The translations under genes were made by a program, and so were the position numbers. Below the pieces are notes generated by a model that saw only the letters and a list, made by a program, of their open reading frames with translations, was not told the origin of the DNA and made no database searches. Positions 15,665 through 41,028 of a DNA stretch of 64,000 nucleotides are shown one piece after another (the stretch's first letter is position 1; each line of letters begins with the position of its first letter). The DNA lies in contig CAYUVA010000004.1 of the NCBI GenBank assembly GCA_964448115.1, positions 62,001-126,000 on the forward strand. The letters are read 5' to 3'. Source of the DNA: an uncultured bacterium (GTDB lineage: Bacteria > CAYUVA01).

Positions 15665-17236
15665 TTAATTATTTATAAATCTATAATCAAGTAATTCAAT
15701 TTTAGGTTTTTCTTTTGGTAACCTGAATAATATCCATCCATTATTGTATCTTTTGATAACTCTCAATTTCTTAATAAATGGTGCCCATTCTTCCAATTCT
15801 TGGGATTGCCAATATAGTTTTCCTATTAAATTTTCATCAGAAGGTAAAAGCAATCCAAATACTTCGGGCAACTTTTTATTGATTTGATAAAATGTGTCAG
15901 GGGTTAAAGGAACCTCCATTGCCATACATTTCGCATACCATCCTATATCGAAAGATCGACAAGAAATGACTAATTGTCCTTGGGGAACTGTTGCTCGAAG
16001 GTGCTCGAATATCTCTGAATTGTAATTTCCATTAACCTTTTTCTCTATGGATTCAATAAATATGTTCTTTCTTAGATCAAAAATGTATGATGAAGTTCCC
16101 TCAAGAAGTATTAGACTTATAATCATAAATCCTATAATTGGCTTTCGTAAAAGAAAATGATGAATGGCAATTATTGCAGTAGGTATTATTAAAATTAATA
16201 ATGGATAAAAAACTCTTTCTACATAATGAATTGGCAAAATGAATAAATGTAATAACATTACTAATAATGTAAAATAGATTAGAGTAGATTTTTTACTGAT
16301 TTGTTTGATAAACAATGTAGAAATTAAAACAAAAGTTATTGTTAATCTCCATATTTTAGGAATATCATTTATAAAACTAACAATATTTCTTATATATATT
16401 TTTATTATTTCCAGATAATTTGAAAACATAAAATCAAAAATAGAAGGTAAATGATCGCTTTTATACAAAGAATATCCAGGATATGTACTACTAAACATCA
16501 TTATTTCGTACTTTTGAATGCTGAAAAATGGATTACCAGTTTCTAAATAATTTCTAAATATCCAAGGTGTAATACAAATTAAGAAACAAATAAATATAAA
16601 TAATAATGACTTCCTTTTAAGTGATTTTTTAAGAATAATAAAAAGGGGAAGCAAGTACAAAATACCGAGGTATCGACAAAGATATAATAACCCTGCAATT
16701 AAGCCGATTATTTTTCTGCTATTAGAAGTATTTATTAAAAATAAGTATATCATTAAAGATAATAATGTAGCAAATAATGGTTCACTCATGCCGGAGCGAG
16801 ATATAGCTAGAGTTTCCTTATTAGTGCATAAAATAAAACATGCCAATACAGCAAGATAGGTATTATTTGGAATTATAATATTAATAATTTTATAAGTAAT
16901 AAAAATGGTGACAATAACAAAGATTAAACTTTCAATGCCGGCTGCAATATCTTTTTCTCCGAAAAACCTGAAAAAAATCGATAATACTAACGGATGCAGT
17001 GGCGCTCTGAGCAAATCTGGAGGAGGAAAATCATCTATCCAGTTAAGATAAATTGGCGTGAAGCTAAGTACCTTAAAAAATTCTCCTTTGTTTAACAAGG
17101 AGGCTATCTGTGAATATTCAGCGGCATCTGGTAGATATAGACCTTTAAATGTTAATATCCAGTTGATAAATAAAAAAATAACAATTATGAATACTAGTAC
17201 AATCGGCTTCTTTATTAAATTTACTATGTTACTCAC
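15665..17236 (-). CDS. ArnT/PMT-like GT-C glycosyltransferase, very AT-rich
   Basis: PDAAEYSQIA, RAPLHP, MSEPLF, PWIFRNY..TGNPFF; multi-TM. Confidence 0.8.
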   Translation of the reverse strand: MSNIVNLIKKPIVLVFIIVIFLFINWILTFKGLYLPDAAEYSQIASLLNKGEFFKVLSFTPIYLNWIDDFPPPDLLRAPLHPLVLSIFFRFFGEKDIAAGIESLIFVIVTIFITYKIINIIIPNNTYLAVLACFILCTNKETLAISRSGMSEPLFATLLSLMIYLFLINTSNSRKIIGLIAGLLYLCRYLGILYLLPLFIILKKSLKRKSLLFIFICFLICITPWIFRNYLETGNPFFSIQKYEIMMFSSTYPGYSLYKSDHLPSIFDFMFSNYLEIIKIYIRNIVSFINDIPKIWRLTITFVLISTLFIKQISKKSTLIYFTLLVMLLHLFILPIHYVERVFYPLLILIIPTAIIAIHHFLLRKPIIGFMIISLILLEGTSSYIFDLRKNIFIESIEKKVNGNYNSEIFEHLRATVPQGQLVISCRSFDIGWYAKCMAMEVPLTPDTFYQINKKLPEVFGLLLPSDENLIGKLYWQSQELEEWAPFIKKLRVIKRYNNGWILFRLPKEKPKIELLDYRFINN

Positions 17237-17388: not shown

Positions 17389-17541
17389 ATTGATACTAAA
17401 TGCTTAAATTATGGGTATTTTGATGGGTATGATCGGATACAACTCCCTGACGCCCACTTGGTCTTGCTTCTTTATAGGGCGCATGAGGACGAAGAGAGCA
17501 ATGGTTAATGTTCACAGTGCAACAATCCAAAGAGGTTGAAG

Positions 17542-20500
17542 ATGAAAAACAACCTGAGTATATGCCTCGCTTTTCTTTTTTTATTCATCTTTCTTCCCTT
17601 TGCCTCGCTCAATGCAACTCCCACTCCTACACCGACATGGGTGGCACAGGATACCTACGGATACGAGGGCAGGATAGACGATACTTATCGATGGTATAGC
17701 ATAGAGGATGGAACCGCGCTCACCTTGAGCGATGATTCATACACCAGGATTGATCTCCCGTTTGACTTCAGGTTTTACGGCATGGACTACAATCACTGCT
17801 ATGTCAACTCCAATGGACAGATCTGCTTTGGTACGCCGAGCATTGAGCATGTTAACGCGCCCATTCCCAGTGCATCGTTGCCTAATAACTTCGCCGCTGG
17901 ACTGTGGGCGGATCTCGACCCGGCGGATCTTTTCGTGATCGAGGGGGTCTTCTACAAGTCCCTTGGCACAGCCCCCAAGCGGGTTGCGGTCGTAGAATGG
18001 GCTGGAGTGCCTTATGCAACCACCGGCGCCAACGACCTTTATTTTCAGATCATCCTACAGGAAAGCTCTAACCGTCTTTATTATTCGTATGCCAGCATCC
18101 CGGATTATTCCTTTGCTGACGGGCAGTTCGCAGCGGTGGGGATCGAGAATCCAGACGGAGATGACGGCATTCAATACTGCTATAGGGAAAAGGGCAAGCT
18201 GTGGGAAAACCTAACATTGAGATTTACTCCCCCTGATGACCTGCCGCCGGTGATCTCCGAGAGATACCCGGCTGCCGATGCCAACTCGGTTTACAACAAC
18301 AGCATCATCCGGTTGGAAATAGTGGATTCACTTAGCGGCGTGGATTCCAATTCCATTTACATGGAGGTTAACGGCAGCGAGGTTTCTCTAGCGATGGCTT
18401 CCGTGCCCGAAGGATACGATATTAGATACACACCACCGGCTCCGTTCGCAGATCTTCAAACGGTAGTGGTTTATATAGAGGCTTCGGATAATGCAGGCAC
18501 GCCCAATACTCTCTACGAGTATTACACATTTACCACCGGCGCAGATCTGAATGACACAGTGGCGCCTTATCCTTATGATCTATCACCATTTCCAGGTCAG
18601 ATCATAGTCTCCACCGAAACGACAATATCGCTTAAAATAAAGGACGATGAAACCTGCGTGGATAAAGGCTCCCTTTTCATCACCGTGGAGGGGGCTCCGG
18701 TAACGCCAGAGTCTTTCATCTACCCGATCCCTGGCGGATACGAGGTTTACTATGTGCCTGAGACACCATTTGGCTATACGCAGGTGGTGGATATAACGGT
18801 AAGCGCCTCTGACTTGAGCTTCCCCTCGCAAGCGATGCAGCCTTACAGTTATAGCTTTACAATATACAATGTTCCCACAGCTACGCCGACCTTTACTCCC
18901 ACCGATACCCCGACCTTCACCGATACGCCCACCGCAACCGACACGCCGATTTACACTGCCACTCCCACCAGTACGCCAACTGCCACCGAGACCTGGCACT
19001 GGCCGGGTCCCACCGATACACCTACGCCTACCAATACGCCTACGGTTACCCCTACCCAGGCGATATCAGTGCTTATCGTCTCTGATGACGATGCGTATCC
19101 CAACTACGAGGCGGGGGGCTTGACCGGTGCAGGCTACTACCAATCAATATTAGGCTCCAGCTATGCGGTTACCATCTGGTACGAAAAGATAAGCGGCAGA
19201 CCATCGCTATCAACGCTGCAAAGCTACGACCTGGTGATATGGAGCACGGGGGATTACAGCACCTACGCGCCGGACAGCACCGATCGCACTACCATAGAAA
19301 ATTATCTTGCCGGGGGCGGAAGGTTGTTAATAAGCGGTTGCTTTATCGGCATGGATAATGGTAACAACCACTTCTTCAATGATGTCCTGGGCGCTTATTA
19401 TATTTTCAATGAGAGCATGGAGGATGTTCTAGTAGCCGACTATAGCCATCCGCTAGCAGATGGCTTCCATTCGGTTGCCGATACCATCAAGCTTATCGAT
19501 GCCCCCTCAAAGCTGGTATATGATCCGGACTTGATAGGAATAATGCCTGGCTCAAATACCATCTTCATGCGCGGATTGGAGAGTGAAACCCCGATACTTC
19601 CATGCGTGATAGGCAAGGAGACCGTGGACTTCAAGCTGGTATATATTTCGTTGCCTATTTACCTTTTCCCTGACAATGAGCGCCAGGTGCTGGTCGAAAA
19701 TGCAGTGAATTATCTGCTAGCCCCGTTGTCAACGCCGACGCCGACTCCCTTGCCTTCATCAATCGGCTATCTTGTCCCTCTTTGGGACGGCGGCAGGGTG
19801 GTTGAGATCGATAATCGAGGTCAGATCGGCTGGGAGATCCCCTCGCTTGTTCACCCCGTGCAAGCTCAGAGGCTTTATAATAAGAATACGCTGGTAACCC
19901 AGACAAATACTAACCCCTCGGTTCTCGAATTTGACTATAACGGGGAGCTGGTCTGGGCTTATTATGACCTGGTAAATCCGACCGATGCGATGCGCACCGC
20001 CAGCGAGGAGACCTTGATCTGCGATCCCGGACAAGGTAGGGTGCTACAGGTCAATCTTGACAAGGAGACTACCTGGAGCGTGGATGGCTTGAGCCTGCCG
20101 GTCTCAGCGCAGCGGCTTGATAACGGCAATACACTCATCGCCGAGTATAGCGCCGGCAGGGTGATCGAGGTTGCTCCCAACCAAAACATCGTATGGAGCT
20201 ATGATGATTTAAGTGGTCCCACCGATGCGCAGAGGCTCGATAACGGTAACACCTTGATCGCCGATGATGCCGGTGGCAGGGTCATCGAGGTGGATCCCCT
20301 CGGCGAGATAGTGTGGGGCTTTGCGACCATAGAGGCGATCAACAAGATCCAGCGCACCCCCTTGGGAACTACCCTGGTAGCGCATCCGGATATCTCGACA
20401 ATCCTGGAGGGGAGCTTGGAGGGATATATCAACTGGGAGTACTACATAGATGGCTCTCCGCAAGGCTGCCGACTGGTCGGAGATTTCGAGCCTCCCTACA

Positions 20501-22596
20501 CCGAGAATCACCAGCCGGCTATGGATGAGCAAGCTGCCTTGCTCAACTCGTGCATATACCTGGTGGTCAAGGACGATTATGAGGGTGTGGATCCCGACTC
20601 GCTGTGGATGCAGGTCAATGATCTCAATGTAGCAGCTCAGCTCGAAAAGACAGCGGTTAAGGGGGGATATGCCATCAAGTACTGCCCAGGCTCAAATTAT
20701 GCACAGAATCAGCAGGTAAGGGTGCAGGTTCGTGCTTGCGATCTTGACCATACGCCAAAGTACATGCCTGCCGAGTTCTATACATTCACCACCGGGTTCA
20801 CTCCGGATACTGACACGCAGCCACCTTATATCGAGAGCTTCTCTCCAGCCAATGGCAGCGAGAATGTCGATGCAAACAAGACTATAAGCCTGCGCATAAG
20901 CGATACGCATCTTACCGTGGATGCAGGTTCGCTTGATATCAGGATAGAGGGTGTTCCTTACGGTTCGTGGGCACGCGGAATATTCATGCCCCTTGCAAGT
21001 GGGATTGATGTAATATTGGTGCCTTATGAGCCGCTGCCCTTCGGCCAGATGATAAATGTCTCCATAGATGCCTGCGATACAGCCATAATCCCCAACTGCT
21101 TTGCCTCGGTCCAGGAGTATAGCTTCCGGGTAGAATTCGCCGCCACCCCCACATCGACACCGACCGCCACTCAAACCGCTACTCCGACCATAACCCCCAC
21201 TGCCACGCCGAGCGCCACACCCACGATGACCGCTACCGGTATCCCGACCAGCTCTCCGACGCGGAGCCCGACCATGACGCCGACTGTAACTGCTACCCCG
21301 ACCAACACATTTACCCCCGCGATGACCTCCACTCCCACCCTGACCCCTACCAGGACATCGACACTTACCCGAACAGCTACCCCGACGCCTACAGTTACAT
21401 CTACCCCGACCGATACCATGGTTCCAACAAATACTGGTACGCCGACCTCTACGATGACCGCCACGCCGAGCAAGACTCCCACGGTAACGCCGACCTTTAC
21501 ACCGTCGCGCACCCCGACCTCCACTTCCACCGGCACCCCATGCTATTATGATGATGTTTACGAGCAGGGCGGTGGTAACGACACCCATGAGAGCGCCAAG
21601 CCGATCTCCGATACCGGAGGCGTTCAGAAGCACTACTATTGCAGCTCCAGCGATCAGGATTGGGCTTACTTCTACGGCATCACCAACCGGCGATACACCA
21701 TTTGGACATCACGGTTGGGGAGCGAGGCTGATACATCGCTCTACCTGTATAACAACCTGATGCAGCTCATCGATTATAATGATAACTATGCAGGAACCTT
21801 GGCTTCGCGTATCGAGTACGAGACCGGCTCCAGCTACGGGATCCTATATGTTAAATCTATCGATGCACAGGGTGGCTGGGGAAGCGATGCCTATTACGAT
21901 ATGCAGGTGATCTTCCAGGTCTATACCCCGACAGCGGTTCCCACCAGTACCCCGACTCGCACCCCCACGCCGTCGAACACGCCGACGGTAACCAACACCC
22001 CAACGCAGTCTCCCACCGCGACCCCGACCGGCACTTGTACTGGCACTCCTACCTCAACCCCAACCTATTCACCGACTGCTACTGCTACACCAACTAGCAC
22101 CCAGACTAACTTGCCCACCAGCACTCCCACCACCACCTCTACCCCGACGGCATCTCCCACCATGCTGCCCAGCAGCACACCGACAGTAACCATGATACCG
22201 ACCAATACCCCCAGCAGCACTCCATCTCCGACCGCCACGCCATCTGCGAGTCCGACCCGCACACCGACGCCCACTAAGCCTATCTCGGAGCCGGTGGTCT
22301 CCGTGGCTGGTTACATGACCACGGAGCTGTACTCGACTTTAGGCGGATACTTGAGTATCCTTGCGGTTGCCAGCAGCCCGGACAACTTCAAGATCGTAAG
22401 CGTCGAGCTTTATTATGGTCAAGAAGCGACCGGATTGATGCTTCCCATTGCGGACCCGGTGAACAATGTATTTATCTGGGAAGGTATATATGTAGGTCCG
22501 GGCGCGCCGCCGGGCAGGTACCCTGTGGAGATGATGGCTACTGATCAGTATGATAATCAAAGCGCGCTGTGGCCGTACCTGAATGTTGGTGAGTAG
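17542..22596 (+). CDS. Giant exported multidomain protein: signal peptide, nidogen-like domain, four Ig-like repeats, GATase-like domain, beta-propeller, PPC-like domain, Thr/Pro linkers, C-terminal 'WPYL' domain
   Basis: ATG 17542 after [20 protein letters not shown]; repeated PP.I....[13 protein letters not shown] repeats; TPT runs; ends [11 protein letters not shown]. Confidence 0.88.
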
Positions 22597-22635: not shown

Positions 22636-23982
22636 GTGAAGAATGGTAGCACCAAACGGCTCGTCTTGATAGTCCTATTCGGGCTATTGCTTCGCCTTTT
22701 ATATGTTGTCTATCTTGATAGCGGCTTTCCCATAAGCGATAGCCTTGATTACGACAAGCGAGCCATGAGCCTGCTTGATGGTCGTGGCTACGGCGACACC
22801 TTTCGCCCCCCGCTGTGTCCATTTTTTCTGGCAGTTGTCTATTGGCTCTTCGGTCATCAGTATCTTGCAGTCAAGCTCATCCAGTCCTTGTTCAGCGCGG
22901 GCACAATATTGCTGGCTTATGTTTTGGGCAAAATGCTCTTTGATAATCATGCAGCGCTGGCTGGCGCCCTGATAGTAGCCATGTATCCGAGCCTGATCAT
23001 AAACTGCGGGCAACTGCTGAGTGAAACGGTCTATACTGCAATTCTGACCGCCATGGTGCTATTGGTGATAATTGCCTCCAGATCGAAAAGAAGATGGCTG
23101 CTCAGGGCAGCAGCCGGGTTTCTCATGGGATTGGGGACCCTAGGCAAACCGGTTCTTCTGATGTTCGTGCCCTTTTGGTTGGTCTATGAAACAGTGAGCC
23201 ATAAAAGCCTATTCATAGCACTAAGAAACCTGCTTCCTTGCATTTTAGCTGCCCTGTTCGCCATAGCTCCCTGGATCGCCTACAATTTTGCCAGGTATGA
23301 TCGCTTTATATATATTGACACTAATGGGGGCTTCAATTTCTGGGTAGGCAATAACCCGCAATCGACCGGCAAGATGGAGGAATATGCAGTCGCAGCCTAT
23401 TTTGAGTTCAGCGATGATTTCGAGCGCCAGCGGGAGCTTTACAAGCGAGCCTTGAGATTCATCAGGGACAATCCAATCCACTTCTTGAGGCTGTTCATTG
23501 CCAAGGTGCGAATCTTCACCGGCATCGAGGGTCGCCAGTTCAGCCATCTTTATGTTACCAACTACTACGGCAAGATCCCCACATTATCTTTGTTTATCAT
23601 GTTATCAGCCATTGTTATCTCCTTCCCTTTACTAGCCATTTTTTTTCTGATCGGCTTATTTATGCTACCTCGCATGGAGTACGGCTTGGGGCTTATGCTG
23701 ACGCTGTTGGGGTACTATATACTTATTCACGCCTTATCGGTAACTGAGGCTCGCTATCATTTTCCGGTGGTGCCGCTTTTGGCAACGCTAGCGGGGTATG
23801 GAATGATAAAAACAAAGGAGCTTCATATAGCAATGAAAAAATCCTCCAAGGCTAAGCTGTTGGCAATTGTGAGCATATTGGGGATTTTGCTAATCTCTTG
23901 GAGTTTACAGATCATCGCATTTATCCCCCGGGCACAGACAATGCTTGCGCCGCTAGGCAATGTCTCCTTTTTGCCATATTGA
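22636..23982 (+). CDS. ArnT/PMT-like GT-C glycosyltransferase
   Basis: SDSLDYD, FRPPLCPFFLA, LLSETVY, PWIAYN, NGGFNFWVGNNP, EARYHFP. Confidence 0.85.
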   Translation: MKNGSTKRLVLIVLFGLLLRLLYVVYLDSGFPISDSLDYDKRAMSLLDGRGYGDTFRPPLCPFFLAVVYWLFGHQYLAVKLIQSLFSAGTILLAYVLGKMLFDNHAALAGALIVAMYPSLIINCGQLLSETVYTAILTAMVLLVIIASRSKRRWLLRAAAGFLMGLGTLGKPVLLMFVPFWLVYETVSHKSLFIALRNLLPCILAALFAIAPWIAYNFARYDRFIYIDTNGGFNFWVGNNPQSTGKMEEYAVAAYFEFSDDFERQRELYKRALRFIRDNPIHFLRLFIAKVRIFTGIEGRQFSHLYVTNYYGKIPTLSLFIMLSAIVISFPLLAIFFLIGLFMLPRMEYGLGLMLTLLGYYILIHALSVTEARYHFPVVPLLATLAGYGMIKTKELHIAMKKSSKAKLLAIVSILGILLISWSLQIIAFIPRAQTMLAPLGNVSFLPY

Positions 23983-32802: not shown

Positions 32803-33782
32803 GTCTTCTTCAGCCTTTACAGTTGAGTACCTGCACACTTAAGAACAATATCCTCCTGGCACCGATGGATGGGATAACCAATGCTCCCTTTCGATTACTT
32901 TGCTTCGAGTTCGGCGCGGGAGCCACCTATACCGAGATGATAAACGCGGTTGCCCTAAGCAGGAGGGTTCCGGCTACCATGGCGAGAATTGAGCGAGCTG
33001 ATGGCGAGGGTATTGTTATCGCTCAGTTATCAGGCAGAGAGCCGGGATCTTTTTTCAAAGCTGCGCTTGTTTTGGAAGAGGCTGGCTTCAATGGGATCGA
33101 TATCAACATGGGGTGTCCAGCTAAGCGCATTGCAGGCAAGGGCTGTGGCGCTGCTCTTCTAAGGGAACCGAAGCTAGCGCTTGAGATAGTTCATGCCGTA
33201 GTGGAGGCGGTAAAGCTGCCAGTTACTATCAAGCTGCGCAGCGGATGGGATGAGGACACGATAAACGGGCTGTCGATTTGCACAGAAGCGCAGCGCCTTG
33301 GCATCGCTGGCGTAGCTCTACATCCCCGCACGAAAAAGCAGGGCTTCGGTGGCAAGGCTGACTGGAGCCTGATAGGCGAATTCAAGGAGGCTCTTAGTAT
33401 TCCGGTGATCGGTAGCGGCGACCTTTTTACTCCCCAGGATGTGCAGCGAATGCTCAAAGAGACCGGCTGCGACGGGGTCATGATCGCACGCGGAGCCATC
33501 GGAAATCCGTGGATATTCAACCAGACCATCGAGCTGCTTGAAAGCGGTGGAACATGCCCGGTAGTAAATGCTGGGTTACGGGAGCGGTTGCGGGTGGTTC
33601 TCAGGCATCTTGAGCTATTGGAACAGCATATAAAATACCGGGTAGCCGGGCGCTTCAAGTATCATGTCAAGGGTTATTTCAAGGGATTAACCGGCGCATC
33701 GAGGCTGCGTAACGATTTATACAAGTGCAAAGAGGTTGCTGCCATGAAGGAGATTCTTTTATCCTATTTCAGAAATTATTAA
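32796..33782 (+). CDS. dusB: tRNA-dihydrouridine synthase, DusB type
   Basis: LAPMDG, IDINMGCP, KLRSGWD, HPRT, DGVMIARGAIGNPWIF. Confidence 0.92.
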   Translation: MLSLLQPLQLSTCTLKNNILLAPMDGITNAPFRLLCFEFGAGATYTEMINAVALSRRVPATMARIERADGEGIVIAQLSGREPGSFFKAALVLEEAGFNGIDINMGCPAKRIAGKGCGAALLREPKLALEIVHAVVEAVKLPVTIKLRSGWDEDTINGLSICTEAQRLGIAGVALHPRTKKQGFGGKADWSLIGEFKEALSIPVIGSGDLFTPQDVQRMLKETGCDGVMIARGAIGNPWIFNQTIELLESGGTCPVVNAGLRERLRVVLRHLELLEQHIKYRVAGRFKYHVKGYFKGLTGASRLRNDLYKCKEVAAMKEILLSYFRNY

Positions 33783-33872
33783 TAATATTATCAATTCCTG
33801 CTGGATAAATTCTTCAAGGCTGGAAAAATTGTCAATGGATGTAGAGTGAAAATATGTATATAATAAATATAT

Positions 33873-35279
33873 ATGAGCGAAAAGGATCACAGAACCCAAA
33901 AGGCTGGCGGTGAAAGGATACTGGTAGTCGATGATGAGGAGTCGATTCGAAGGGTTCTCTCGGTCATCCTGAGCAAGGAGAACTTCCTGGTCGATGTAGC
34001 CTCAGGTGGGGTAGAGGCGATAAAGAAAGCCTCATACAATACTTATGATCTGGTGATCTGCGATATTCGTATGTCAGAGATGGATGGCTTCAAGGTGCTG
34101 AATGAGCTAAAGAAGCTCCCCAATGCGCCAACGGTTATATTGATGACCGCCTTTGGCAGCCTGGAGACGGCTATCGAGGCGATCCGATCTGGAGCTTACG
34201 ACTACTTCTCCAAGCCGATCAATGCTAAGGAGATGCTGCATAGGGTTTTTAAGGCGCTTGAACAGCGCAATCTAAGCAAGGACTTCGAGAGTCTCAATGA
34301 GGAATTCCAAAGAAGGTACGGCTTGGATAATATCATCGGCAAAAGCTCCCTAATGCAAGAGATCTACTGCAAGGTGTTGCGTGTAGCCCGCTACAAGAGC
34401 ACAGTGCTCATCAGCGGTGAAAGCGGTACAGGTAAGGAGCTTGTAGCCAGAGCCATCCACTACCACTCATCTCGTTCTAATAAAAGGTTTTTGGCTATCA
34501 ACTGCGGTGCTCTTCCAGGCGATCTGTTGGAGAGCGAGCTATTCGGTCATGTTAAGGGTGCCTTCTCTGGTGCTATAGTAACCAAGCGTGGTCTATTCGA
34601 GGAGGCGAATGGTGGCACGCTGCTGCTCGATGAGGTGGGAGAGCTATGTCCATCATCTCAGGTTAAGCTTTTACGGGTGCTTCAGGAAGGTGAGGTCAGG
34701 CGTGTGGGTGGTAACGAGATGATCAATATCGATGTAAGAGTGATAGCCTCTACGGAGAAAGACCTGAGTGAGGAGGTTACCCGTGGCACCTTCAGGGAAG
34801 GCTTGTACTACAGGCTGAATGTGGTATCTATTCATATCCCCCCGCTGCGTGCCCGCAAGGAGGATATACCTCTTCTGGTGAAGCATTTTATAGAGAAATA
34901 CTGCCGCGAGAATAATCGCCCCTTGCTTGACTTTTCCAAGGAAGCGCTTGAGATGGTAATGGACTACCAGTGGCCGGGCAATGTGCGCGAGCTGGAGAAT
35001 GCCATAGAGAGGGCAGTGGTGCTTGCCGATGGAAGCAGCATCACACCAAGAGATCTCCCCCTTCATATAACTGAGATGCAAAAAAAGATAACCGTCTCCA
35101 TTCCCGAGAGTTATTATAACCTGAAGAAGGTGCTGGTAGATGTTACCAGCACAGTAGAGAAACAGATGATCTTGCGCGCCCTCCGAAAGACCGAAGGAAA
35201 CCGCACCAGGGCTGCCCGGCTGCTCGGCATATCCCATAGATCACTCATGTACAAGATAAAGGATTACGAAATAAACTAA
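33873..35279 (+). CDS. Sigma54-dependent response regulator (NtrC/AtoC/PilR family)
   Basis: Receiver domain (VVDDE, CDIRM), GESGTGKE, ESELFGH.KGAFSGA, WPGNVRELEN, Fis HTH. Confidence 0.95.
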   Translation: MSEKDHRTQKAGGERILVVDDEESIRRVLSVILSKENFLVDVASGGVEAIKKASYNTYDLVICDIRMSEMDGFKVLNELKKLPNAPTVILMTAFGSLETAIEAIRSGAYDYFSKPINAKEMLHRVFKALEQRNLSKDFESLNEEFQRRYGLDNIIGKSSLMQEIYCKVLRVARYKSTVLISGESGTGKELVARAIHYHSSRSNKRFLAINCGALPGDLLESELFGHVKGAFSGAIVTKRGLFEEANGGTLLLDEVGELCPSSQVKLLRVLQEGEVRRVGGNEMINIDVRVIASTEKDLSEEVTRGTFREGLYYRLNVVSIHIPPLRARKEDIPLLVKHFIEKYCRENNRPLLDFSKEALEMVMDYQWPGNVRELENAIERAVVLADGSSITPRDLPLHITEMQKKITVSIPESYYNLKKVLVDVTSTVEKQMILRALRKTEGNRTRAARLLGISHRSLMYKIKDYEIN

Positions 35280-35382: not shown

Positions 35383-35567
35383 TTGCTCCTTTGTGAAATG
35401 GTTAATGTTAGGAGTAACCTCTAAGGAGTGATTCTTATTATTAAGCCCAGCGCAAGCCGGTGTGGAACTCGTAATGACAGTTTAGGATTGAAAATTATCA
35501 CACGCGAAAGTGCATTATCACTAGGAAAGCAATCAAAACAGTAATCAATTGTAGTCCTTGCTATCTT

Positions 35568-35596
35568 TTGATGATAATAAGTATAAGTACTATAAT
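35568..35596 (+). promoter_or_regulatory. Sigma70 promoter, probably giving a leaderless mRNA
   Basis: TTGATG-N17-TATAAT, 6 nt before ATG 35603, no SD. Confidence 0.55.
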
Positions 35597-35602
35597 GTGT
35601 TT

Positions 35603-37477
35603 ATGAGATTTCGTAAAATAACATTGGTGTCAGTGGTATTACTCTTTGTATTTCATCAAGTTGCTACCGTTGATGCAGCCGATGTTCAAGGCAGCGCTTA
35701 CCTTATAGATGAAATAAATCATGCCGGGATCTGCGTAACCATTGCAGATCTCGACTTTGTACCCACTCTCGGTTGGGTGGGGATTTTAATGCTATTGATC
35801 GCATTGAGTATATTGATCTTACGCACCGAGCGAAAGAGATTTTATCTTCCAATATCGATAATATTAATCGCTCAAAGCTTTCTCGGAGCAGCGTTTATCA
35901 GAAGCACTGTAACTAACTATTATGGGGTTTACAGCTTCGATGACATTCCAGAGGGTGAATATCGGCTCAGCGCTTATATGTATCGTGGTTATACCAATGC
36001 AGCAATACCCAGGATCCATGTTCCACAAGATGGAGTAGTTCAGGCTCCGAGGATGCTGCTTTATCCCCATACACCGACCAATACAGCCACTTGGACAAGG
36101 ACACCGACTCCAACTGCAACCAGCACGCCTTCTGCAACTATGACGCGAACCTCGACACCAACTGCGACAATCACCCCGAGCCGTACACCTACTGCGACAA
36201 TCACCCCGACCTTTATTCCCACCAGTACCCCAGTCCATTCGAGCACACCGACTAGCACCCCAACTATACATCTCGCCCCGACATCTACTCCAACTGGAAC
36301 CAGTACAGAGATCCCAACCAACACACCAACTGCGACATTTACCCAACCGCCTACTAGTCAGAAATGGATAAAGGTTATCGGGGGTGTGGGCAGCAATGAT
36401 GGGGCATACTCTGTGGCATGTACAAACGATGGCGGTTATATAGTTGCAGGCTATACGGGAATATCGGGGAATACAGATGTATGGGTGATAAAACTGGACG
36501 CTTCGGGAAATGTGCAGTGGAATCGTGCTTACGGGGGAAGCGGAAATGATGAGGGATATTCAATTATACAGACGCAGGATGGCGGTTATGCAATAGCAGG
36601 ATATACTCGTTCCTACGGCGCTGGTCAAAGTGATATCTGGGTAATAAAAACCGACAACCAGGGCAATATGCAGTGGAATAAAACTATCGGGGGAGCGGAG
36701 TGGGATAAGGCTTACGGAATAATCCAGACGAGCGATATGGGATACTTGGTTAGTGGAAATGTTAATAATCCTTCGAACGCTTGTTTGATCAAACTTAGTC
36801 ATTCTGGAGATCTTGTTTTCAATAAGAATTATGGCGGCTCAGATACCGAATGCTTTTATGAAGTAATTCAGATTCCTAATGATGATTTTGTTGCTATTGG
36901 CTTTACGACCTCTTATGGGCAAGGCTCCCAAGATTTCTATTTAGTGAGGTGCGAACAGAATGGCAACAAGTTGTGGCAGAGAACCTTTGGAGGGATTTCA
37001 ATTGATTGGGGAAGAAGTCTAAAATATACGAATGATGATGGATTTATATGTATCGGACATACAAGTTCCTTCGGGGTTAGCATAAGAGATATATTTCTTG
37101 TAAAAACTAATCATAATGGTGAAATTGTATGGCAGAAAACTATGGGGGGCGCATTTCATGATTGTGGATATTATGTTGACATAATAAATAATAATGGATT
37201 CATTTTAACCGGTTGGTCTACTTCATTCTCTGAAACCCAGGATGTTTTTCTCATTAAGACCGATGCCAATGGCGAAGCAGTATGGGGAAAACTATTCGAT
37301 TATAATAACTACCAGGATATAGGACATTGTGTGAAAAACACTCCTGATGGTGGTTATATCATCGCTGGAAGGACTAGCTTCAATGGTGGGTGTGCTTTTA
37401 TAATAAAGACTGATTCTGAGGGGAATATCGACCATAATATAGGGGTAAAGGATTTGAATATGAATTTGTTGGAGTAA
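35603..37477 (+). CDS. Exported protein: carboxypeptidase-regulatory-like domain interrupted by an IPTL-like TM hairpin, Thr/Pro linker, C-terminal beta-propeller repeats
   Basis: Signal [28 protein letters not shown]; repeats W.K..GG...D......T.DGGY..AG.T. Confidence 0.85.
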
Positions 37478-37727: not shown

Positions 37728-37846
37728 ATAGGTTAGCTAATGGAAGTAAAAGGAAATAATCCTCGAAGGGCTTTGGATCTCCAGAGCTTTCAAGAGGTGT
37801 TGACAAGGAGAACTTTTAAATCTTTCTTAAGGAGGATAGTAGGAAA

Positions 37847-38407
37847 ATGAAGAAAACCATGGTTCTCACTTTTGCCCTACTTATTCTGAGCACAGGAATG
37901 GCTTTTGCTGTCGAGAAGGACTTTACCGCCCCGGCAAGCAATGTAATGGCTTACATAGCCTCCATAGCCAAGAATGTGGATCAGAACAGCGTCTCCTTTG
38001 AGCAACTGGCTCAGCAGTTCATCTGGAACAATGCTGAGAAGGTTAGCGTCAAGGGTGATGCAAAGGGACCGAATCGTCCGTTCATCTATGTCGGCGGTTA
38101 CTGGGACACCCAGGTAAGCTGGAGCGAGGGCGGATACCTCCGCTTTATCGTCTATGTAACAGACCCCGACGGACCGCAGAACACAGAGATTAGGGAAGTT
38201 CGCGTTTACTTCGGCGGACAGCCGACCGAGCTTCTACTCCTGGACAATGGTCAGTCCGGTGATTTCGCAGCCGGCGATGGCGTCTATGGATTCCACATGG
38301 ATGTCCCGCCCGAGACTCTGCCTGCCGGACAGTATCTGCTCGAGGTAGTCGCAACCGATGTTGACGGCAACACGAGCGACATGTGGCCCTATCTAACCAT
38401 TAACTAG
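37847..38407 (+). CDS. Exported protein made mainly of one 'WPYL' domain (choice-of-anchor-X-like DNG..GD..AGDG.Y motif)
   Basis: AAGGAGGA RBS, signal peptide ending AFA, ends SDMWPYLTIN. Confidence 0.88.
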   Translation: MKKTMVLTFALLILSTGMAFAVEKDFTAPASNVMAYIASIAKNVDQNSVSFEQLAQQFIWNNAEKVSVKGDAKGPNRPFIYVGGYWDTQVSWSEGGYLRFIVYVTDPDGPQNTEIREVRVYFGGQPTELLLLDNGQSGDFAAGDGVYGFHMDVPPETLPAGQYLLEVVATDVDGNTSDMWPYLTIN

Positions 38408-38434: not shown

Positions 38435-39019
38435 TTGAGCTTTAGAGGTTTAATCGCAATCCTCGCTGTAGCCCTGATAGGAATCATCGGCTGCAGCGGG
38501 GATTCTTCGTCAGACAACAATCCAACCGCTACCCCCACGCCTACCAATACGCCTGCAACAGGCACGCCATCTCCTTCACCTACCGGCGTCCATGTCGGCG
38601 ACAGAGCAGCCGATTTCAGCGCTACCGATGCAGATGGCGTAATGCATACCCTACATCAGTACGAGGGGAATGTCATCCTGCTCAACCTGTCAGCGATGTG
38701 GTGTATCCCCTGCCAGGAGGAGGCGCCGCTTATCGAAAACCTCTGGCAGACTTACAGAGAGAGCGGATTTGTCGCTATCTCCGTCCTGATAGAGGATTAC
38801 TTCGGCGCGGATCCTGATGCTGAGGACCTAAACGCCTGGATACAGACCTACGGGTTGACTTATCTGGTTCTGGGGGACTCGGATCATGCGGTCTGGTTCC
38901 TGTACGAGGGCAATAATGTCCCCTTGAACCTGGTGCTCGACCGCGATCTTGTTATCCGCCACCGCCAGGAGGATTTCGACCTGGAAGCAATCAGCGCCAT
39001 GATAGAGGATCTCCTGTAA
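38435..39019 (+). CDS. Lipoprotein TlpA/redoxin with Thr/Pro linker
   Basis: Lipobox IIGC, TPTPT linker, AMWCIPC, VPLNLVLDRD. Confidence 0.85.
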   Translation: MSFRGLIAILAVALIGIIGCSGDSSSDNNPTATPTPTNTPATGTPSPSPTGVHVGDRAADFSATDADGVMHTLHQYEGNVILLNLSAMWCIPCQEEAPLIENLWQTYRESGFVAISVLIEDYFGADPDAEDLNAWIQTYGLTYLVLGDSDHAVWFLYEGNNVPLNLVLDRDLVIRHRQEDFDLEAISAMIEDLL

Positions 39020-39027
39020 GCTCCCCC

Positions 39028-41028
39028 TTATCGGATCGCCAACCTCAATCCCTTTTTTGGCTCCAATAATGGACTCTTGAGGATCCGGGACGCGCTATCA
39101 TAATGCCAGCCATTTTTTGCCTCCAGGGATCTCTCAATAAGTGTCTGCCTGTTGAGTTCTCCATCATAAGCCTTGAGGTGCACGGCGATGCGTATCGGTC
39201 TGTTGGTCGGAGAAATCTCGAAAATCAAGGCGTTATCATCGAGGCTATAGGTGAACATGAATCCATGATCGCTCTTGCCATAGATGCGGAAGCTGTTGCA
39301 GCCTGCCTTGGGATAGACATGGAAGGTTATGGGATTGTCGGCTGCGGTTGAGTGGACATCCTCATACATGGGTATGATCGCTCCCTCCTTGATGAAGACC
39401 GGGAAGCGCTCTAGCGGGCAGTTATACTCCACCTGGTTGCCGCCGCGATAGAACTCCTCGGTGAAGAAGTCTATCCAGTTGTCGCTGCTGGGGAATTTTA
39501 TCATTGTTACGCCGCCTGCGGTTATCAGCGGTGCTACCAGGAGGCTCTCACCCAGAAAATATTGCTTGAGTATCCAGTTGTATGGCTGCATGACCGAGTA
39601 GTTCTCGAAGTAAGCCTTTGCGCCCTGGCTGTAGAAATAGGGTATAAGCGAGTGGTGCAGGTTGACGAAGTCGCGGTAAATATCGAGTGTCTCCTGGTCA
39701 TATTTCCAGGGTCTGTGCTCTCCACCACCACCGTTTTCCATTATCGGGCAGAAAGCTCCCATTTGCGTCCAACGTATCATGACCTCCTTATCTCTCAAGC
39801 CACTGCCCCGGAAACCTCCAATGTCGGAACCCATGTTGACATGGTTGTAGTTTGTGGACTTGAACATGTTGCGCATTGCGAGCTGTAATCCGCGCCAGTC
39901 GGGGTCTTGATCCCCCACCCAGCAGGCAAGGGCGATCTCCCTGGGGGTGAAATTGTAGCAAGCTAAGCCCTCGTAGCAATCGACTGGGCGCGAGGTGATA
40001 ACGCGGTCATTGCCCAGCCGCTCCCTGGTATAGTGAAAGAAATCGCCGTAGTACATTGCGCTATATTCGGGCACGGTTATGGAGCCGCCGTATCCTGTGG
40101 GATTGCCCAATAGCGCAATCAAGGGATCGTTCCCATCACACTTCCAGCCATCAATACCCATATCGAGTATCGGGTCCATCAGTCCATGCCACCACTCGAC
40201 CGCATCTGGATTAGTGTAGTCGAGAAAGGCGCCATCTCCGTGCCACCAAGGCGCTGTCTTGCCGTCATTCAGCAGATATCCCCTGCTCTTGGCGTAAGCG
40301 TAGATCTCGCACTCTTGGTTGATCATCGAGGTTATCCAGATAAAGACCCTGATCTCCCTTTGGTGCATCCAGTCGATCAGTTCCTGGGGACCGGGATATC
40401 GCTGTTCATCCCACTCAAAGTTGTTATAGCAGGTCTCCCACGGGGCATCTATGATCACCGCCCCAACCGGAATGTCCCTATCTATGTATCCCTGTACCAG
40501 GGCTTTAGTATCATCAGTAGTGCTAACATTCTCCCAGACCCAGTGGCGATGTACCCACTCCGGCCAGGGGGGCAGCCTGTAGGTGCCGGTTGGGGTAGGT
40601 GTAGGCTGCCCACTTGGGGTAGGAGTAGCGGTCGGCTCCGTCGATTCGGGAATCAATAACAGTGGCCATGATGGAATGCTCCCCGGCGATGCATCTTTGC
40701 ATAACAGCTCAAGTAGATATGCACCGCTTGGAGCAGGTGCTTGTATGGGTACCTGGAGTCCATAGATATAATCGCCAGCTCCGAGGTCTCCACTGGCGCC
40801 ATCATCATTCAGGCAAACACCGGTAGGTAGTCCCTGAAAGTATATCTCAAGGTGCTCACAATCACCGGGTGCATAAGCGATCATCTGAAGCTCTCCACCA
40901 CCGCCGGCTGTCAGATAGGAATCCCAGTACCCGCCTAGCCCAACTTGGTTTCCATTAGCGCTGCCCAATAGCGCCAAGGTGATAATGGCTACTGGAAGTA
41001 AGGACCTCGAATTATCTTTATTAGCCAT
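39028..41028 (-). CDS. Exported GH31 glycoside hydrolase with N-terminal 'WPYL'-like domain and Thr/Pro linker
   Basis: IIDAPW, DYTNPDAVEWW, IDGWKCDG nucleophile region, WVGDQ, GSDIGGF, RWTQMGAFCP, LLVAP. Confidence 0.88.
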   Translation of the reverse strand: MANKDNSRSLLPVAIITLALLGSANGNQVGLGGYWDSYLTAGGGGELQMIAYAPGDCEHLEIYFQGLPTGVCLNDDGASGDLGAGDYIYGLQVPIQAPAPSGAYLLELLCKDASPGSIPSWPLLLIPESTEPTATPTPSGQPTPTPTGTYRLPPWPEWVHRHWVWENVSTTDDTKALVQGYIDRDIPVGAVIIDAPWETCYNNFEWDEQRYPGPQELIDWMHQREIRVFIWITSMINQECEIYAYAKSRGYLLNDGKTAPWWHGDGAFLDYTNPDAVEWWHGLMDPILDMGIDGWKCDGNDPLIALLGNPTGYGGSITVPEYSAMYYGDFFHYTRERLGNDRVITSRPVDCYEGLACYNFTPREIALACWVGDQDPDWRGLQLAMRNMFKSTNYNHVNMGSDIGGFRGSGLRDKEVMIRWTQMGAFCPIMENGGGGEHRPWKYDQETLDIYRDFVNLHHSLIPYFYSQGAKAYFENYSVMQPYNWILKQYFLGESLLVAPLITAGGVTMIKFPSSDNWIDFFTEEFYRGGNQVEYNCPLERFPVFIKEGAIIPMYEDVHSTAADNPITFHVYPKAGCNSFRIYGKSDHGFMFTYSLDDNALIFEISPTNRPIRIAVHLKAYDGELNRQTLIERSLEAKNGWHYDSASRILKSPLLEPKKGLRLAIR

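Follow-up and report, generated by a model that had tools for sequence, protein, structure and literature searches.

A choice-of-anchor X type domain as a recurrent tail of exported proteins in an uncultured bacterium: a candidate module for surface retention and assembly

A domain of about 105 residues, recognizable by GY near its start and WPYL near its end, is carried by three proteins encoded in the window (the whole 64,000-nucleotide stretch of DNA that was analysed) and by 162 open frames of the genome to which the window belongs, most of which end in it. What is new is that a choice-of-anchor X type domain has been turned into a general tail. The explanation that we prefer, at a probability of roughly 0.45, is that this tail is a post-export module for surface retention and assembly, which would work by the self-pairing that structure modelling predicts. 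The features of the window on which the analysis builds are as follows.

37829..37836 (+): Shine-Dalgarno-like AAGGAGGA, 10 nt before the ATG of the stand-alone gene (read from the sequence)
37847..38407 (+): gene for a stand-alone 186-aa protein, stop included; signal peptide, a poorly predicted N-terminal region of ~55 aa, then the domain (open reading frame list)
37847..37912 (+): signal-peptide-like N-terminus of the stand-alone protein; MKK, a hydrophobic run and AFA before VEK (sequence and home-made test; cleavage site putative)
37913..38077 (+): N-terminal region of the mature stand-alone protein; two short helices predicted at low confidence
38078..38404 (+): domain copy (i), with the choice-of-anchor X loop, residues 78-186 of 186 aa (BLASTP, NF041940, AlphaFold2)
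17536..22596 (+): exported carrier protein of 1686 aa (open reading frame list)
21925..22290 (+): Thr/Pro/Ser linker before copy (ii), 122 aa, 75% T+P+S
22291..22593 (+): domain copy (ii), without the loop; the last 101 residues and extreme C-terminus of the 1686-aa protein
39028..41028 (-): GH31 glycosidase carrier of 666 aa; Pfam PF01055 (Glyco_hydro_31) 3.8e-52 and PF21365 2.1e-15
40645..40947 (-): domain copy (iii), directly behind the signal peptide, residues 28-128 of the GH31 protein
40582..40644 (-): Thr/Pro linker from copy (iii) to the GH31 catalytic part

The GY...WPYL pattern, which an earlier note on this DNA had picked out three times, is indeed present at each of these places, and the copies are homologous by BLASTP. 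Pairwise identity is 38% between copies (i) and (iii) (E 3e-21), 33% between (i) and (ii) (E 2e-15) and 26% between (ii) and (iii) (E 4e-5), and the three-way alignment has 18 invariant columns, including GY, GG, Y..E and WP.L. Profile search found no fourth copy in the window. Two finer points of the earlier description also hold: a Thr/Pro linker lies between domain and cargo in both fusions, and the D(D/N)G..GD..AGD..Y loop is kept in copies (i) and (iii) and missing from (ii). An arylsulfotransferase-like propeller is the sole Pfam match above cut-off in the 1686-aa carrier.

Genes for PMT_2 family membrane glycosyltransferases flank the 1686-aa carrier on both sides (15665-17236, minus strand, E 2.7e-8; 22636-23982, plus strand, E 3.9e-13). 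The carriers' long Thr/Pro linkers are possible sites of O-glycosylation. The window also encodes (35558-37477, plus strand) a 639-aa protein that lacks the tail domain; its N-terminal region is hydrophobic, and it has a Thr/Pro linker and beta-propeller repeats of the DUF5122 and delta-60 types, with weak NCBIfam matches to the anammox S-layer glycoprotein and to midcut-by-XrtH.

The genome of the window (3.98 Mb in 86 contigs, 94.45% complete) was searched as six-frame open frames of at least 60 aa, with a profile of the three copies and then with one from a 46-copy alignment (A2). The first profile found 189 copies in 155 frames and the refined profile 197 copies in 162 frames, of which 129 hold a single copy, 32 hold two and one holds four. 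Together these carriers, ten of them truncated by contig ends, comprise 152,476 residues, or 11.5% of the genome DNA, with a median frame of 841 aa. In 142 of the 162 carriers no more than 15 residues separate the last copy from the stop, and in 119 of these 142 the stop codon comes 5-7 residues past W-P, the last residue being mostly E, D, Q or N. Tandem copies are joined by linkers of 22-70 aa, and once, in the four-copy carrier, of 748 aa. Use at both termini, on which the earlier note had laid weight, proves to be the exception and not the rule: five carriers have the domain N-proximally and 15 internally with further domains behind it. No PEP-CTERM, LPXTG or T9SS (type IX secretion) tail follows the domain in the 20 non-terminal carriers, which were read individually, and just eight of the 162 carriers have a lipobox-like motif.

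Two further kinds of C-terminus were seen in the genome. One carrier, a DMFA2_C-like enzyme (contig C1 of the genome, 74032-76482, minus strand), continues beyond its two tail copies into a hydrophobic C-terminal segment of transmembrane-like character, the sole membrane anchor seen behind a tail. The motif P(S/A)NP.P..GA..V.PN, directly before the stop, closes six open frames of the genome, none with a continuing frame downstream:

C29:36664-38775 (-)
C53:14181-17882 (+)
C25:34138-37005 (+)
C16:63840-66224 (+)
C1:76593-78362 (+)
C61:14106-15869 (+)

In its exact form the motif occurs five times in the genome, always within three residues of a stop, and in five of the six frames the GY-WPYL domain lies 46-147 residues upstream of it. 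These frames may be a small paralogous family or may bear a second C-terminal signal.

AlphaFold2, given alignment A2, folds the domain as a seven-strand beta-sandwich (pLDDT 92.3, pTM 0.84). None of the 46 copies attains the cut-off of a Pfam family, and at most three copies match any one family at E ≤ 0.01; the best Ig-like score is that of DUF4625 (21.9 bits, cut-off 27), and Big_13, Big_7 and fn3 likewise stay below threshold. The central loop is matched by NCBIfam NF041940 (choice-of-anchor X, a model of 37 positions) in 37 of the 46 copies at E ≤ 0.01. With the cut-off at 25 bits, copy (i) reaches 25.2 bits in the whole protein and 27.0 bits when the domain is taken alone; copy (iii) stays below the cut-off (16.2 bits) and copy (ii) has no match. 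Across all 197 copies the loop was found in 95 by a home-made regular expression, which may miss variants.

Searches beyond the genome place the domain in the same family. Among 1.84 billion representative proteins the profile matched 2031 at E ≤ 1e-3; at the stricter limits of 1e-10 and 1e-30 the numbers are 788 and 211. A search for longer proteins gave ten matches. Three large proteins (P0002, P0035 and P0059) each have 6-12 internal repeats that match the domain profile, and those of P0002 and P0035, which were scanned against NCBIfam, each match NF041940 as well. NCBI names members of two such repeat-protein clusters choice-of-anchor X (for example, P0035 and P0289), one of them from an archaeal metagenome-assembled genome. 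In another protein, P0142, which itself ends in a T9SS tail, the matches are confined to the half of the profile that holds the loop. Judged from these alignments, the core of the domain is a choice-of-anchor X type Ig-like unit. The likeness of the loop to choice-of-anchor X, which the earlier note had pointed out, therefore holds and was understated, since the whole core is homologous to that repeat family. The repeats of all three large proteins align to profile positions ~16-97 only; as the core is homologous and the repeats stop there, the N-terminal P.I..AGY.DT and C-terminal S..WPYL.I strands are particular to the tail family.

Usage differs too. The name choice-of-anchor X refers to a repeat within the protein chain, downstream of which lies a separate sorting signal, and proteins of that name have internal tandem repeats that another anchor may follow. 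The tail domain, in contrast, stands once or twice at the very end, so that 142 of 162 carriers end in the domain itself; it has GY and WPYL strands of its own that the repeats do not match, and about half of its copies are without the loop. A literature search found no publication on NF041940 or choice-of-anchor X. Structure and cluster databases gave no closer relative: by fold, none of 973 PDB matches reached E ≤ 0.001 (best TMq ~0.5); by sequence, the PDB gave two chance-level matches (E 0.013 and 0.15); and the nearest ESM Atlas clusters are unnamed hypothetical proteins whose recognition lies below the mark, so that they are leads only.

The carriers are strongly enriched in signal peptides. 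In a strict home-made test 135 of the 162 passed, and so did 261 of 1392 controls, which were the other frames in the same genome with a length of 350 aa or more (odds ratio 21.7); a laxer test did not discriminate enough, as it passed 147 carriers but also 757 controls. The cell is a diderm, with four Omp85 and six secretin matches in the genome. Cargo is diverse. Every fourth carrier of 350-950 aa was scanned against Pfam (20 of 86), and 13 of these 20 contain known families: Metallophos (twice), FG-GAP, AhpC/TSA, Big_7, DMFA2_C, M14, beta-helix, BNR (twice), CarboxypepD_reg, heparinase II/III and Kelch. The other seven contain none. Six further carriers are C25 (gingipain-type) peptidases with propeptides. 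The earlier note had expected many lineage-restricted matches on signal-peptide proteins, and this is the pattern seen: 162 carriers, 135 of them with a signal peptide, and 2031 matching proteins among 1.84 billion. The outcomes that it had named as counting against its reading did not appear, as the copies align, no characterized family covers the domain and the carriers are exported.

The stand-alone protein, which is little more than a signal peptide, an N-terminal region and the domain, has 12 homologues of 104-225 aa, itself included, among 5.8 billion proteins. Its N-terminal region is poorly defined: AlphaFold2 gives pLDDT < 50 for residues 1-73, six metagenome homologues have a motif MAYIASI..PF.KLAQQFIW in common, and a single Trp alone is kept across all 12 genomes. 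The lineage of the genome is a very rare one; a phylum-level search of it returned no other genome, and the 30 nearest genomes are related at domain level only; two of these 30 match the profile at E ≤ 1e-5. One of the two (G024) belongs to a group of 14 genomes, 11 of which have the family, with 4-49 matches each at E ≤ 1e-8. In every one of these 11 other carrying genomes the best profile match is a small frame of 171-264 aa, and in the genome of the window the stand-alone protein ranks second of 150 scored profile matches. A related-locus search with the single protein gave two loci. All 12 loci compared (11 from the other genomes plus this window) encode a small protein that ends in the domain with the loop intact, and nearly all of the 12 close with SD.WPYLT(I/V).

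From its sequence conservation, then, the stand-alone protein is a conserved core member of the domain family, and it may be a scaffold, cap or adaptor. The special role that the earlier note had proposed for it fits its presence in 12 of 12 carrying genomes examined. Other parts of that proposal fared less well. Tandem promoters had been claimed for the gene; the promoter scan found none upstream on the plus strand, where TTGACA-like hexamers are visible that fall short of the rule of the scan. The 5' hairpin is not significant (z -1.57), as 11 of 200 shuffled sequences fold as well. Taken as a whole, the observation in the note is confirmed and is far larger than had been stated, extending to 162 frames and 197 copies, whereas its promoter and hairpin claims and its suggestion of abundance are unsupported.

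Gene context is of little help. In the other phylum the stand-alone gene adjoins a circularly permuted ATP-grasp-like gene in eight of 11 loci, and genes for FabF, a TPR protein, KhpA and Mfd are also nearby in five to seven of the 11. None of these neighbours is shared with the window. As the neighbours are housekeeping genes there and different genes here, context gives no functional link for the stand-alone gene. Near the stand-alone orthologue in locus L061 there is a PMT_2-TPR protein. In the window, a gene for a TlpA/ResA-like thiol-disulfide oxidoreductase lipoprotein with a Thr/Pro linker of its own (38435-39019, plus strand) begins 27 nt after the stand-alone gene, and elsewhere in the genome (L043) a redoxin of the TlpA-like kind is fused to the tail. 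A functional link between the stand-alone gene and the TlpA-like lipoprotein gene was considered and rejected, since the pairing is not kept in L061.

A mode of action is suggested by structure modelling of a complex between the mature stand-alone protein and another domain copy, run with custom alignments in one structure-prediction job. The predicted complex has an ipSAE of 0.73, the best of three controls reaching 0.00; this mark is attained by 58 of 80 solved complexes versus 2 of 110 mismatched pairs, counts that hold only roughly when custom alignments are used. Three runs share at least 75% of contacts, and partner pLDDT is at least 76. A pass driven by memory of known structures is unlikely because no like structure has been solved. 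The predicted interface is two-fold symmetric and takes in residues 2-15, 81-88 and 101-109 of each domain, with the WPYL strand lying against the G.YLLE strand. These strands bear the signature motifs of the earlier note, and both family-specific end strands are among them; as choice-of-anchor X repeats match only positions ~16-97, the strands that set the tail family apart are those predicted to form the interface. The 37 interface columns (of 106) hold 11 of the 20 most conserved columns, and interface conservation is marginally above that of the rest of the domain (Mann-Whitney p 0.046), core residues being conserved too. The model supports a symmetric domain-domain pairing through the end strands. 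It also lends weight to the suggestion in the earlier note that cargo may dock through the shared domain, the pairing being a predicted one.

These results can be drawn together in the following mechanism. The tail would be a beta-sandwich of ~105 aa derived from a choice-of-anchor X type Ig-like repeat by gain of a strand at either end, both of them lineage-specific (P.I..AGY.DT first, S..WPYL.I last), and would serve as a general tail for exported proteins in this lineage. To judge from their sequences, carriers probably cross the inner membrane by means of their signal peptides. Once outside, they may be held together or at the cell surface by the predicted symmetric tail-tail pairing, with contact through the two end strands and the G.YLLE strand. 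Carriers with two tails and the conserved, cargo-less stand-alone protein could then act as cross-linkers, caps or adaptors of a protein coat. On the same enzymes, the tail would fill the functional place that dockerins or T9SS C-terminal domains have in other phyla.

That last point comes from the C25 peptidases. A C25 carrier query (propeptide plus catalytic part) listed 119 homologues at 46-52% identity, whose tails by hand count are Dockerin_1 (PF00404) in 50, PF18962 and/or PF13860 in 48 and neither in 21. Scans of four of these homologues placed Dockerin_1, FlgD_ig or Por_Secre_tail at the very C-terminus, and in three the tail lies directly behind an InhA-like MAM domain, which is the slot taken here by the GY-WPYL domain. 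This swapping of Dockerin_1 and T9SS tails in one slot on homologous peptidases backs the modular sorting or docking reading of the earlier note. Dockerins are short, calcium-binding helical modules that bind a separate cohesin. Like the tail, type I dockerins (PF00404) are modular and stand behind a linker on many different exported enzymes, whereas the tail is a beta-sandwich predicted to pair with itself. No Dockerin_1 match was found in Pfam scans of the 46 copies, and hhalign of the tail against 50 dockerin tails gave a probability of 0.2%.

The genome itself has two cohesin and two Dockerin_1 matches. A 761-aa frame on contig C15 of the genome (G000) contains a secretin match (33634-34113) and a cohesin match (34309-34680, plus strand, 44.6 bits), which suggests a secretin with a C-terminal cohesin module at 33634-34680 (+). 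The two canonical dockerins could be partners of the cohesins.

The same slot raises the alternative that the tail is a C-terminal secretion or sorting signal, read by a dedicated outer-membrane machine as T9SS reads its C-terminal domain, possibly with cleavage by a peptidase and linkage of the cargo to a surface polymer. We consider this possible, if on balance doubtful. Both the T9SS C-terminal domain (TIGR04183/PF18962, with PF13860 FlgD_ig) and the tail are small C-terminal beta-sandwiches found on tens to hundreds of varied signal-peptide proteins, C25 peptidases among them. The extreme C-terminal position in 142 of 162 carriers, with its tightly fixed end, speaks for such a signal, as do the slot shared with T9SS/FlgD tails and a diderm envelope with four Omp85 and six secretin genes to draw on. 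The PorU model gives six sub-threshold matches only (44-85 bits, cut-off 420); these are the six C25 peptidases that bear the tail themselves, which also fits.

Against a secretion signal, the tail has no sequence or profile similarity to the T9SS C-terminal domain: T9SS tail models match none of the 46 copies in Pfam or NCBIfam, and hhalign against 48 T9SS/FlgD tails gave probabilities of 0.6% (197 copies) and 0.9% (A2). SprA, PorV and GldM are unmatched in the genome at its 94.45% completeness, the SprA and GldM searches having matched no control genome either, so that these two negatives weigh less; Por_Secre_tail is likewise unmatched, and this search alone matched elsewhere, in two genomes of another group (G041 and G038). 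Forms other than a single terminal copy also count against a signal of this type, namely the five N-proximal and 15 internal carriers with further domains behind, the 33 carriers with two or four copies, and the conserved cargo-less proteins, beside whose gene there is no machinery gene. Signals of the LPXTG and PEP-CTERM types have a short motif followed by a transmembrane helix and a basic tail. The tails here have no helix, and a polar residue 5-7 positions past W-P closes them; the genome has no sortase match and one partial exosortase-like match (43.5 bits).

Some points weigh on the retention reading in turn. No anchor to the cell itself was found: a lipobox-like motif is present in just eight of 162 carriers and a transmembrane tail in one. 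The strict C-terminal placement is equally consistent with a recognized secretion signal. A retention tail and a secretion signal are not mutually exclusive; retention is placed first and secretion second.

A less probable alternative is a role in ligand binding, like that of carbohydrate-binding modules or SLH domains: the tail would fasten enzymes to a substrate or to a glycan on the cell surface, and calcium might take part by way of the DDG..GD..GD loop. SLH domains occur as repeats that keep a variety of exported proteins at the envelope, sometimes at either end of the protein, and in this they resemble the tail. They bind a cell-wall polymer. An Ig-like fold is common to many binding modules, 37 of the 46 best copies have the acidic choice-of-anchor X type loop, glycosidases, lyases and peptidases are numerous among the carriers, and PMT_2 glycosyltransferase genes are frequent nearby. 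However, roughly half of all copies, copy (ii) included, lack the loop (95 of 197 have it by regular expression), and conservation of family-specific residues is highest in the end strands, not in the loop. The beta-sandwich fold of the tail also differs from SLH, and the 46 copies have no Pfam match to a carbohydrate-binding module or SLH. That the tail is an ordinary structural Ig-like spacer without common function, spread by domain shuffling within one genome, is very unlikely: its fold matches only generic Ig-like structures, its Pfam matches (Big_13, DUF4625 and fn3) are weak and its core has homologues in the internal repeats of large adhesin-like proteins, yet a spacer would not be expected just once, after a linker and at the very end, in 142 unrelated proteins, nor to persist without cargo as a conserved gene in two phylum-level lineages, nor to take the place of dockerin and T9SS tails on homologous enzymes.

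For the retention and assembly module that we prefer, the wider meaning lies in how few general sorting or holding tails there are (LPXTG, PEP-CTERM, the T9SS C-terminal domain, dockerin and SLH), each of which opened a field. As the tail sits where dockerin and T9SS tails sit on homologous enzymes, it is a concrete, testable candidate for another such system; a single domain is found on 162 proteins that make up 11.5% of a genome, and 11 of the 14 genomes in a second phylum-level group also have the family, including its conserved cargo-less member. More speculatively, and at rather long odds, the tail and the stand-alone protein might mark an undescribed sorting and surface-assembly system of diderms without T9SS, in which about a third of the large exported proteins (by a crude test) would be routed or held by a self-pairing beta-sandwich, with the cargo-less protein as core subunit and possibly one of the six secretins as outer-membrane machinery. 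The tail is also the first functional lead for the uncharacterized choice-of-anchor X family, and its profile lets the surface and secreted proteome of these uncultured bacteria be listed from sequence alone.
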